DNA of 64,000 bases from a virus (lineage: Duplodnaviria; Caudoviricetes): the IMG/VR virus record IMGVR_UViG_3300006153_000003, one strand, 5' to 3'. Both the position numbers and the translations under genes were made by a program. The notes beneath the pieces were generated by a model, which saw nothing but the letters and a program-made list of their open reading frames with translations, ran no database searches and was not told the origin of the DNA. How positions within the stretch are numbered: position 1 is the first letter of the stretch; every line of letters begins with the position of its first letter. This document shows, in pieces, positions 61,159 to 64,000 of the stretch.

Positions 61159-61542
61159 CTATCTACATTCTTCAAATACAATAACTTTAAACACAAGTTT
61201 GAACTGTAAATCTTTTTTAATTATACCAATTTTCTGAAGTTTCACCAACTCAGTTTCTATATATCCATGACATTTTTCTATATCAGAAATATTAAACATT
61301 TCTGTATTAAAGCTATATTCATCACCAGAAGCCAAAACATATCCAAAATATAAATAGGAATCATTCATCGGATCATCAAAAAATTGAATTTCTCCTTTTC
61401 TCTGGTTACAAATATAATTTTCCCCTTCTTTTGACCACTTCCAATCCGCAAACTTATCTGTTTCACATCCGGTCAAATCATAACCGGCTACAACATAATA
61501 ACTACTTTCTATGCTCATTTTTTTCCTCCCAATGAAATGCAA
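61159..61542 (-). CDS. Hypothetical phage protein (probable start at MSIESS)
   Basis: GGGAGG RBS before the internal Met. Confidence 0.6.
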   Translation of the reverse strand: MHFIGRKKMSIESSYYVVAGYDLTGCETDKFADWKWSKEGENYICNQRKGEIQFFDDPMNDSYLYFGYVLASGDEYSFNTEMFNISDIEKCHGYIETELVKLQKIGIIKKDLQFKLVFKVIVFEECR

Positions 61543-61825
61543 GATTTATCCAATAAGACCATTTTTCTTTCGGTGTTCAAAACTACCCATGTGACAACCA
61601 TGATTATGACATACAGAAAAAATATTCATTAGTGGATATTTATAAATACATTTTCCTTACCTAACACATAACATTTCTCCCTTTGTGTAAACATTATCAC
61701 ATTCAATTTGTTTCGGTTTTGCAACATCTTTAAAAATTATTTCAACTTGCATTATATTTCTCCCTTCATATAATCATCATTGATTTTTTGATTATTTTAA
61801 TCAAAGAAATGAATCGTGTGTTCTA

Positions 61826-62329
61826 TTATTTCTTCTCTACCACCAAACTATTTTTCTGCACTGCTGTAATTACATTCGATAATTCATCATCTCTTACTTC
61901 TATTTTCTGTTTAATTTTACCATCTGAATTATATCTGCCACGCATAGCAGCACCAACAGCTATGTAATTGTCTTTTGTAACTGTTGTAATCGTGTTACAT
62001 AGTCCATCAGTCCTAAGAGTATACTCACGCATATTACATCTGCGTTCTTTAATTTTACCTGCCTCATAGTCTTTTCTGATTTGCTTTGCATATTCTGTTC
62101 TCTGATATTTGAGTGCTGCGGGAAGAACATTGTTTTCAACAGCATATAAATAACTATATCCACCAGCATTTCCTAATGGCTGTGCCGTTAAACACATTGC
62201 TATTGCATTTGCATCATATACACGATTTCCCTGGCGATACTGTTTACCAAAATTAATTTCTCCAATACCGCCTAATAAAATTGGTTTATGTTCACCACAA
62301 GTAGATTCTATTCCACTTGTGGCTTGGTA
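61826..62329 (-). CDS. -1-frame extension of the C5 methyltransferase (extra TRD-like repeats)
   Basis: Open frame from the slippery site to 61826; QGNRVYD..AIAMCLTA and CNTITT segments resemble repeats in the upstream gene. Confidence 0.7.
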   Translation of the reverse strand, partial: YQATSGIESTCGEHKPILLGGIGEINFGKQYRQGNRVYDANAIAMCLTAQPLGNAGGYSYLYAVENNVLPAALKYQRTEYAKQIRKDYEAGKIKERRCNMREYTLRTDGLCNTITTVTKDNYIAVGAAMRGRYNSDGKIKQKIEVRDDELSNVITAVQKNSLVVEKK

Positions 62330-62335
62330 AAATTT
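62295..62335 (-). other. Programmed -1 ribosomal frameshift signal
   Basis: A_AAT_TTT heptamer, 6-nt spacer, 11-bp hairpin CCACAAGTGGA / TCTACTTGTGG. Confidence 0.75.
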
Positions 62336-63915
62336 CCTATGTTTATACTCTCATATAGCCTATTTAATGCATATTCAAATGCGCCAATTCCTGAAAAGAA
62401 ACTACTTAGTTTTAAGTTATCAAATAGATATGGCATTGCCTTATATAATTCAACAAATATATAATATAAAACGTCTACAACTATAGAATTACCTGCCTGC
62501 TTATAGAGCTGACTGTTACTTACATTTTTACTTGCTGATTCGTAAGCAGAATCCGCAAATCCCATTAATCGAAAACATTCTTTTGGAGTCAATTTACGAA
62601 TTCTAATTTGCTCTTTTACGAAGTTATTACATTCCCAACTATGTGAAGATAATGTAGGACAAATATCATGTTCTCCACCTTTATTAAAACCCCTTGGCTT
62701 TTGAATTATTGTCTTGTCATCAGTTTCTTTAACCTCTGATACAAGCTGTCTTCTGTGCTTGTCAACATATTGTTCTATTGTCGTTCCTTTATAATAGTTT
62801 GCATCTAGGCAGTAACTATAATCTGGTGTCTCCAAAACGGCAGTACCTTCCGATTTTCTATTACTGATACCACGATCCTCCCTGGCTGTAACACAATTTG
62901 CGTACTCAATCTGTTTTGTATCGTTTATACTTTTATCAATACCACAAATAATCTTAGGTTCATGACTACCGCCACCACACGTATTTAATGTTGGAGAACA
63001 ACCATCAGAATCATAAATTCTTCCCACCTGCGGATTCTTCCAATTTCCATCACAATCAGAAATATTTCCCACTTGTTTTACCACATTTTCATTTACCAAC
63101 CTGGGGTCTTTATAATCTCTTGAATTAAGAGTTGGGCAGTAATCATTATACTCTCTTGATTTACCTTCTCTTTTTACCTGACACGGATCATACAAAAGTG
63201 AATCATTGCTATTTAGACTTGTCAAAAACCTCTGTACTTTATCATTAGAAATATAATATTTTTCATCCACTTCATCTTCCAAAACATCTTTTAATCGAAT
63301 TCCATTATCAAATCTTTCGGGAAATACAAATTTACCATTGTCTAGGTCTTTTTTAATAAAAATAAGATAAACTCGCTCTCTGTTCTGAGGAACCCCATAA
63401 TCCTTTGCATTCAGTACTTTCCAATATGTATTGTATCCATACTCATGTAGCTCATCTTCAAATAGCCTAAATGTAGTATCTCTAAACTGCTTTCCTACAA
63501 TATTTTTAACATTCTCATACATTCCAAAATTCGGCTTATTTGCTCGAATCACTCTCAAATATTCAACAAGCAATGATGATCTTGTCTTTTCGATATTCTC
63601 ACTACTACAATTTGGACATTTATTCCTCTGACTCCAATGTACGGTTAGTGGATTATATCCATGTCCGCAATCTTTACAAGTCCACACTGATCCTTTTTGT
63701 TTACCGGCCACACTGAAATCCTGACAAGGACTGCCTCCACAAATCATATTAAAATCTTTTAATTTCGTTTCATCAACCTTAGTAATATCATCAAGATTCA
63801 AATTTTCATCTACTCCGTGAATTGCACAGTAGCTTTTAACTGCATACTTATCAAATTCACAAAAATTTACCAGTTCCCAATTTTTTCTTAAACTAAATCT
63901 TTCAATGGGAGTCAT
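62308..63915 (-). CDS. dcm: DNA cytosine-C5 methyltransferase, circularly permuted
   Basis: GGSPCQDFS, ENV, PQNRER, RKLTPKEC and QAGNS motifs; motif I FFSGIGAFE at the C-terminus. Confidence 0.92.
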   Translation of the reverse strand: MTPIERFSLRKNWELVNFCEFDKYAVKSYCAIHGVDENLNLDDITKVDETKLKDFNMICGGSPCQDFSVAGKQKGSVWTCKDCGHGYNPLTVHWSQRNKCPNCSSENIEKTRSSLLVEYLRVIRANKPNFGMYENVKNIVGKQFRDTTFRLFEDELHEYGYNTYWKVLNAKDYGVPQNRERVYLIFIKKDLDNGKFVFPERFDNGIRLKDVLEDEVDEKYYISNDKVQRFLTSLNSNDSLLYDPCQVKREGKSREYNDYCPTLNSRDYKDPRLVNENVVKQVGNISDCDGNWKNPQVGRIYDSDGCSPTLNTCGGGSHEPKIICGIDKSINDTKQIEYANCVTAREDRGISNRKSEGTAVLETPDYSYCLDANYYKGTTIEQYVDKHRRQLVSEVKETDDKTIIQKPRGFNKGGEHDICPTLSSHSWECNNFVKEQIRIRKLTPKECFRLMGFADSAYESASKNVSNSQLYKQAGNSIVVDVLYYIFVELYKAMPYLFDNLKLSSFFSGIGAFEYALNRLYESINIGNFTKPQVE

Positions 63916-63948
63916 GAACCCATGAAAGATTCACAAATAACAAATTAG

Positions 63949-64000
63949 AGAAAGGATATAACAAGTAATTCCGGATAAATTAGCGTTGCAACGCCTTGTA
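63949..64000 (-). promoter_or_regulatory. Structured leader E4 (truncated by the window edge)
   Basis: Anti-SD arm TCCTTTCT with palindromes GCGTTGCAACGC and TCCGGA. Confidence 0.55.

Follow-up and report, generated by a model that had tools for sequence, protein, structure and literature searches.

In phages, programmed frameshifting is textbook knowledge for the tail chaperones. The slip in lambda G/GT occurs at the heptamer G_GGA_AAG and is not known to require a downstream hairpin; in E. coli dnaX, which gives the tau and gamma products, the heptamer is A_AAA_AAG, a Shine-Dalgarno-like stimulator lies upstream, and the shift shortens the protein. The −1 frameshift of the lambda G/GT tail-assembly chaperone was reportedly worked out by Xu, Hendrix and Duda in 2004.

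Three groups of C5 DNA methyltransferases (MTases) are the closest described enzymes. The MTases of the Bacillus phages SPR, phi3T, rho11s and SPbeta, from the Trautner laboratory, combine one catalytic core with modular, exchangeable target-recognition domains (TRDs), all of which lie between motifs VIII and IX and in one frame. In the split enzymes M.AquI alpha/beta and M.EcoHK31I alpha/beta, the recognition part can have a reading frame apart from that of the catalytic part, and two independently initiated polypeptides are both required. Finally, the natural circularly permuted C5-MTases collected in the 2018 REBASE survey have their break in the variable region (PMC5944983), and the permutants defined there as Type H, of the M.BssHII type, have a break in the variable region that places motifs IX-X ahead of I-VIII (PMC5944983).

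Here we analyze the 3′ end of a C5-MTase gene (dcm) in a 64,000-nt stretch of DNA from a virus of the Caudoviricetes (IMG/VR record IMGVR_UViG_3300006153_000003), hereafter the window. Based on sequence comparisons, we consider it likely that ribosomes undergo a programmed −1 frameshift near the 3′ end of this gene and thereby make a long form of the enzyme. The first-pass annotation of the locus had already read it in this way, and that reading is now supported by a phased heptamer, a fixed spacer, a covarying hairpin, a coding frame that has no start of its own, and at least five hard-wired fusions among relatives.

Candidate frameshift signal at the methyltransferase 3′ end

The last codons of the MTase gene, on the minus strand, read ...ATA GGA AAT TTT ACC AAG CCA CAA GTG GAA TAG, and the slippery heptamer lies six codons ahead of the TAG stop. 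When the minus strand was reread, the heptamer, the 6-nt spacer and the 11-bp hairpin were found exactly where the first-pass annotation had placed them (Table 1). In the stem, 62322..62312 pair with 62305..62295 over 11 bp, to which RNAfold adds a closing G-U pair for a total of 12 bp, and the loop (62311..62306) holds the 0-frame stop TAG (62310..62308). With a minimum free energy of −18.3 kcal/mol, the hairpin has a z of −3.3; among 200 shuffles, 2 reach an equally good fold. A structure 5-9 nt after the heptamer, with covariation, is expected of a canonical −1 site, and both features are found here, with a spacing of 6 nt. The heptamer A_AA.U_UU.U belongs to the H_HH.U_UU.Y class, which is among the most efficient −1 motifs in E. 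coli (Sharma et al., PMC4066793). Since the hosts are Clostridia, efficiency in E. coli is only a proxy here. The possibility that the hairpin is a terminator was ruled out, as there is no terminator-like site in 61400-64000 and no T-run after the hairpin; promoter-like sites in the same interval are no more frequent than in shuffles.

The −1 frame is shut by a TGA just upstream of the heptamer and then stays open to the stop at 61828..61826, which leaves 167 codons after the slip. The first ATG, GTG or TTG of this frame is found at 62197, 46 codons (+138 nt) past the first codon of the heptamer. The predicted long product therefore has 529 + 167 = 696 aa, with the junction ..GNF|YQATSG.. between the two parts. 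The 167 open codons, the two predicted products of 535 and 696 aa and the junction peptide reproduce from the sequence what had been predicted earlier.

These elements suggest the following mechanism. Most ribosomes would stop at the TAG in the hairpin loop and release the 535-aa enzyme, which would be complete by itself. Some ribosomes would pause at the hairpin with tRNA-Asn and tRNA-Phe on AAT TTT; both tRNAs could then slip simultaneously and re-pair one base back, from AAU UUU to AAA UUU. Translation would go on in the −1 frame, and in the resulting 696-aa enzyme the catalytic core would be followed by three more units of the target-recognition type, modules a, b and c. The slippage itself, and its rate, are inferred.

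Table 1 Features of the MTase locus in the window, with positions in the 64,000-nt stretch.
Feature	Position	Strand	Basis
C5 DNA methyltransferase ORF (dcm), 0 frame, 535 aa, short product	62308..63915	-	ORF list, PF00145, TIGR00675
Cys4 zinc-ribbon insert after motif IV, before VI, residues about 79-110	63586..63681	-	weak profile matches + translation
Motif I (SAM-binding strand, FSGIG loop, next helix), residues 501-526, 3′ of motif X	62338..62415	-	hhalign, AF2
TGA closing the −1 frame, 15 nt upstream of the heptamer	62351..62353	-	sequence
Slippery heptamer A_AAT_TTT (P-site AAT Asn, A-site TTT Phe), X_XXY_YYZ phase	62329..62335	-	sequence
Spacer, 6 nt	62323..62328	-	sequence
Stimulatory hairpin (candidate), 11-12 bp, 6-nt loop	62295..62322	-	fold + covariation
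−1 frame extension, 167 codons + stop, predicted long product 696 aa	61826..62329	-	ORF + homologues
Module a (extension residues 15-65), unit of TRD type, for the most part ahead of the 62197 start	62135..62287	-	homologues, codon test
Module b (extension residues 69-125)	61955..62125	-	alignments, module order in relatives
Module c (extension residues 126-167)	61829..61954	-	alignments, module order in relatives

Conservation of the signal and probable reading of the −1 frame

Homologues of the extension are abundant, with 364 at E ≤ 0.001 among proteins of similar length and 877 representative clusters at the same threshold in an exhaustive search. The first five loci retrieved have the same heptamer, spacer and hairpin and unrelated upstream sequence, and one of them shows a compensatory change from C:G to G:C in the stem. 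Loci were sampled by protein similarity to the extension alone, so as not to select on the signal, which gave 80 viral and 21 genomic loci. An MTase ORF overlaps a module ORF in the −1 frame in 80 of about 113 loci. AAATTTT is in phase in 43 of 62 distinct junctions, the remainder being one junction with an indel (L064, below) and other architectures; it is in phase in 43 of the 44 junctions that are out of frame, which answers the check for conservation in homologues that the first-pass annotation had proposed. It is because of this conservation among relatives, and not because of any single sequence, that the signal goes beyond chance.

In most of the phased junctions, a stop occurs at +25 nt from the heptamer start, in or beside the hairpin loop. 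The codon preceding AAT is GGA, GAA, GTA, ATA, GCA or TTA. These codons specify six different amino acids and share A as their third base, whereas over all third positions in these genes the frequency of A is 35.5%. Scanning metagenomes for the pattern yielded 52 further distinct junctions in the same gene context, half with class A and half with class B cores (see below), and many of them lie on contigs whose names mark them as human-gut assemblies. In the junction flanks, we saw no conserved stimulator upstream. When the window was compared with L009 by an ungapped identity profile, indels made the result uninformative.

The sole exception among the out-of-frame junctions is L064 (2941-3204), where a single-base indel just after the heptamer, relative to L058 and L065, puts the module frame in +1 instead of −1; this is either a mutation or an assembly error. 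Two other loci, L068 (1150-1224) and L079 (2148-2222), show a variant cassette in which the heptamer is followed by ATA TAA, with the stop at +10 and no clear hairpin, and then by a module a frame of 66-70 aa. This variant may be a stop-stimulated version of the signal.

The −1 frame bears the marks of a translated frame in a region where ribosomes could hardly start. In 22 of 41 scorable distinct junctions, the first canonical start lies within the conserved module (typically at +135) or is absent, and in several loci the −1 frame is shut by a stop right at the heptamer. The 72 nt of module a that precede this internal start were compared across relatives: 64% of the pairwise differences fall on codon position 3 of the −1 frame, synonymous differences outnumber non-synonymous ones (3426 versus 1561), and the other two phases have stops in most sequences. 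This codon signature, together with the lack of a start, suggests that the stretch is read in the −1 frame by ribosomes that come only from the upstream ORF. The peptide conserved just past the heptamer in the −1 frame is largely confounded with the conserved hairpin.

The same data bear on the possibility that the downstream ORF encodes a small protein of its own, which would arise through independent initiation or termination-reinitiation and act as a TRD subunit in trans; the heptamer would then be incidental. Split C5-MTases of two polypeptides are indeed known (M.AquI, cited in PMC5944983), and the ATG at 62197 of the window could yield a 123-aa product. Moreover, a separate group of phages has free-standing module ORFs of about 70 aa with AGGAG and ATG, the latter in an ATGA overlap of the upstream stop (L078, L082-L092, L101). 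Since some relatives express module a as such a free-standing ORF, fusion is not obligatory for its function. Nevertheless, no ATG, GTG or TTG occurs in the window between the TGA at 62353-62351 and 62197, which excludes independent initiation for the conserved part of the extension there, and the 72 start-less nucleotides are under purifying selection in the −1 frame. The codons that overlap the MTase stop are ATA, GTA or TTA, none of which is a start, and a start upstream of the heptamer is present in only 5 of 42 junctions, in none of them with a Shine-Dalgarno sequence. Independent initiation would also leave unexplained why the phased heptamer is invariant and why hard-wired fusions exist. 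We regard this explanation as improbable.

These fusions, in which both parts are encoded in a single frame, are found in at least five relatives, each produced by a different indel and all keeping a relic heptamer. The spacer of L114 has gained a T, and L116 has an insertion that falls in the spacer or in the first arm of the stem. In L023 a C has been added at the base of the stem, in L115 the stop is lost through an indel in the loop, and in L117 the loop is rebuilt. The junctions of L114, L116 and L023 read NF-xx-(A/P)(T/P)SG, matching the NF|YQATSG predicted for the window, and in L115 and L117 the frames are joined within the loop. E. plexicaudatum ASF492 (L097) has the hard-wired junction of L023, with more frame breaks upstream in its assembly, and L094, from a cultured isolate of the mouse gut, has a junction of the frameshift type. 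The recurrence of hard-wiring shows that the fused polypeptide is tolerated, and selected, as a product.

Three loci, from phages and MAGs, show a more fragmented arrangement. In L082 (1501-3301), L085 (1621-3349) and L101 (1265-4078), MTase and modules are split into 4-6 consecutive ORFs in different frames, several of which have their own Shine-Dalgarno sequence and ATG, with ATGA overlaps. Either these loci encode enzymes of several subunits, in which the TRD proteins are free-standing, or they are pseudogenes in series.

The hairpin is conserved as a structure. In an alignment of 35 sequences, the stem is paired in 97.3% of cells and 4 of its 11 pairs show changes on both sides; none of 500 shuffles matches the observed covariation values, and structures slid by 1-3 columns pair in 38-51%. 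The commonest state of the stem includes a U-G pair next to a G-U pair. Such pairs can form on the sense strand alone, since they correspond to A-C mismatches on the other strand; this argues that the structure acts as RNA rather than as a palindrome in duplex DNA. The point matters for a second alternative, in which the conserved inverted repeat mainly serves recombination at the DNA level, as a joint where MTase cores and TRD cassettes are exchanged, and the frame offset is a by-product that means nothing for translation. In line with such a role, a cassette of about 45 nt links two unrelated upstream contexts, the class A and class B C-termini, to many sets of modules, and phages with a common N-terminal leader carry cores of either class. 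In addition to the strand asymmetry of the stem, however, recombination has no use for the phase of the heptamer, for a spacer fixed at 6 nt or for a stop in the loop, and the extension is under coding selection without having a start. As the main explanation, recombination thus seems quite improbable, even if it can coexist with frameshifting rather than replace it.

Indeed, the conserved cassette of about 45 nt probably doubles as a recombination joint for swapping cores and module sets, because it joins two kinds of core to many module sets and because a shared leader occurs with either core. Over the first 40 MTase residues, L037 and L070, compared with L027, L038 and L048, have the same N-terminal leader, with a class B or a class A core, which suggests that the core has been replaced between the conserved 5′ end and the frameshift cassette.

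Decay of the gene is a further alternative, according to which a frameshift mutation severed a once in-frame C-terminal extension, leaving a remnant that is no longer translated. Damage does occur among the relatives, with a second frameshift in module b of L096, the 1-nt indel of L064, and four of the 52 metagenomic junctions where the extension is truncated to 8-23 aa. Nevertheless, about 90 distinct junctions preserve the arrangement out of frame, the extension shows a third-position bias and a synonymous excess, and independent mutations would not always hit a phased heptamer 6 nt before a covarying hairpin, which makes decay very hard to credit. Productive transcriptional slippage needs longer homopolymers than those found here. 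RNA polymerase stuttering on the A3T4 run could in principle give a minus-one mRNA that encodes the fusion, and slippage on A/T runs is known in bacteria and phages (PMC5009743), but the run has only three A and four T and the process needs neither a hairpin at a fixed 6 nt nor the X_XXY_YYZ phase, so that we give this last explanation almost no credence.

The appended modules and the methyltransferase core

Under the programmed frameshift, the extension would append three modules to the MTase, in the order a-b-c in the window; in relatives, the orders a-c-b, a-c and b-c and module a alone also occur. The metagenomic extensions contain about eight further units with a PTL-type core, typical of C5-MTase recognition domains. 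In most of the long MTases that contain them, the same modules are found between motifs VIII and IX, the canonical target-recognition region, with 50-85% identity, and module a occupies this place in many of them with 65-85% identity; in P0220 and P0191, modules are also found N-terminal of motif I. The first-pass annotation had called the extension TRD-like on the basis of repeats in the variable region of the window MTase itself. That resemblance is not significant (BLASTP E = 3.9), and the TRD-like character instead follows from the homologues in other MTases. No match to the extension was obtained in Pfam or NCBIfam, and its profile had no sequence match among solved structures. Module a may resemble the recognition loops of M.HhaI.

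Every upstream MTase retains a variable region of at least 135 aa, which indicates that the appended modules are additions and not the sole TRD, and we found no upstream MTase among the relatives that has no TRD of its own, in which case the appended module would be essential. The variable region of the window MTase measures 258 aa and has three PTL-type cores.

In the AF2 model of the natural fusion L023 (602 aa), both the appended modules and the internal TRD region have pLDDT <50, so this model says nothing about docking. A complex model of the window MTase with the extension reached a score of 0.64, the best of 3 controls scoring 0.00; a score of 0.64 is reached by 58 of 80 solved complexes and by 2 of 110 mismatched pairs. 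Across the runs, contact agreement was at least 0% and partner pLDDT at least 36; of the three, one had a score of 0.00. The confident contacts in the complex model place module a against residues 176-180 (motif VIII), 203-212, 437-451 (motif IX) and 471-476 (motif X). These residues presumably correspond, roughly, to the pocket of the canonical TRD in the M.HhaI structure. As solved MTases hold such contacts within one chain, this result may reflect the memory of the model. The complex prediction shows that the model treats module a as a TRD, from which binding does not follow.

In structural models of M.MpeI and M.SssI, the N-terminus lies near the C-terminus (PMC5944983), and attachment of modules at the N- or at the C-terminus may thus be spatially similar. 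We lean slightly towards the view that the normal TRD pocket accommodates the appended modules and that the long isoform thereby gains extra target sequences, in which case the two isoforms would provide a fixed ratio of narrower and broader protective methylation. More speculatively, TRD-type modules could be autonomous plug-in specificity units for C5-methyltransferases, attached at either end of the core (N-terminally as in P0220 and P0191, C-terminally by frameshift or fusion) and perhaps acting in trans as subunits of about 70 aa (L082-L092). This would amount to a Type-I-like separable specificity system for cytosine methylation, with the cassette as both stoichiometry control and recombination joint; we think it rather unlikely in this general form.

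The 535-aa ORF itself is readily recognized as a C5-MTase, with matches to PF00145 (Pfam; E 3.9e-59, 201 bits, cut-off 22) and TIGR00675 (NCBIfam; E 3.2e-64, 217.7 bits, cut-off 100.65) and an AF2 model with an M.HhaI-like fold (Foldseek TM 0.73, E 3e-19; core pLDDT >90). It belongs to class B: its Pfam and TIGRFAM matches enter at profile position 20, whereas those of class A enter at position 2. The missing N-terminal part is found at the other end: in hhalign, the profile of the class B C-termini aligns with the N-terminal motif I of class A (probability 86%, E 5.6e-6), and AF2 models a C-terminal strand (501-505) and helix (510-526) confidently, with 10-residue blocks of mean pLDDT 87, 94 and 81. 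The motif order therefore departs from the canonical I to X, with IX and X following VIII as usual and only motif I moved. As judged from the profile alignment and the model, the window MTase is circularly permuted between motifs I and II, starting at motif II and running from II to X and then I (62338-62415 and 63880-63915, minus strand). Class B accounts for 11 distinct junctions among the loci sampled by protein similarity and for 26 in the metagenomes, which shows that the permutation is the mark of a family and not an accident.

Several other features were observed in these genes. The Cys4 zinc ribbon of the window MTase, which has weak Pfam and NCBIfam matches at residues 79-113 and a CxxC...CxxC pattern in the translation, is also present in several class B relatives (L008, P0225, P0234). 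An imperfect 13/14-nt inverted repeat surrounds the MTase start codon (63915-63913) at 63897-63931 on the minus strand, with no obvious Shine-Dalgarno sequence; it could sequester or expose the start codon. Some relatives carry insertions. In L001 (2-832), of class B, an in-frame homing-endonuclease domain (HNH_3 and NUMOD1, Pfam E 1.9e-14 and 1.3e-5) separates the displaced motif I from the slippery site, and P0198 and P0205 have NUMOD4-HNH inserts as well. L018 (515-3013), a class A relative with the same frameshift cassette, has an intein (Hint and LAGLIDADG) within the MTase, in an ORF of 833 aa.

Implications and comparison with known systems

If the long isoform methylates extra targets, a single gene would provide a tunable mix of anti-restriction specificities, and the conserved cassette would account for the reshuffling of cores and recognition modules. 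It would also mean that the TRDs of C5-MTases can act outside their canonical position, which would be useful for MTase engineering. In current gene calls, the extensions appear as orphan hypothetical proteins, hundreds in number, whose starts are wrong.

Looking for precedents by full-text search and targeted reading, we found no frameshift in a DNA methyltransferase in the part covered of the 2016 recoding review, or in the GeneTack survey, the PRFect paper, the E. coli motif study and a frameshift preprint of 2025. The statement in PRFect that methyltransferases are known to frameshift traces to a paper on the erm leader, which does not concern a DNA MTase.

The arrangement resembles known frameshift systems. 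Like lambda G/GT, the window MTase has a conserved −1 slip near the 3′ end of a gene, which would give a short product and a C-terminally extended fusion; the G/GT products are made in a fixed ratio, and that frameshift was recognized, as here, by its conservation across diverged phages. It differs in protein family and function, and the extension in the window consists of shuffled DNA-recognition modules. With E. coli dnaX, the window shares a phased heptamer, a stem-loop about 6 nt downstream and translation of the bacterial type. In contrast to dnaX, the shift in the window would lengthen the protein, and no conserved upstream stimulator is seen.

Among the methyltransferases, the window enzyme resembles those of the SPR and SPbeta type in being a phage C5-MTase with modular, exchangeable TRDs on one catalytic core, as the first-pass annotation had noted by pointing to the SPbeta group. 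The link to that group is weak: SPR matches with only 67% identity, along 187 nt that belong to the conserved core, none of the phage records spans 80% of the query in nucleotide comparison, and the relatives are prophages and phages of gut Clostridia. Unlike the SPR/SPbeta type, the window has its extra modules after motif X (after motif I in the permuted class), to be reached by recoding.

The window MTase also recalls M.AquI and M.EcoHK31I in the separate reading frame of a recognition part. It departs from them in that its extension has no start and its upstream enzyme appears complete; a division into independently initiated subunits, of the M.AquI type, is seen only in the fragmented relatives L082, L085 and L101, which resemble these split MTases. 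As for topology, the motif order is circularly permuted relative to I-X, as it is in M.BssHII, M.Alw26I, M2.Eco31I, M.Esp3I and M2.BsaI. The window MTase, however, breaks between motifs I and II and not in the variable region, and so falls outside Type H. The order II..X-I is a break point and a topology that is not among the natural permutants of the 2018 REBASE survey, and the permuted enzyme thus adds a natural topology to those collected there. The proposed mechanism is canonical; what is new is the family to which the gene belongs, the place where recognition modules are appended, and the permutation of the core.
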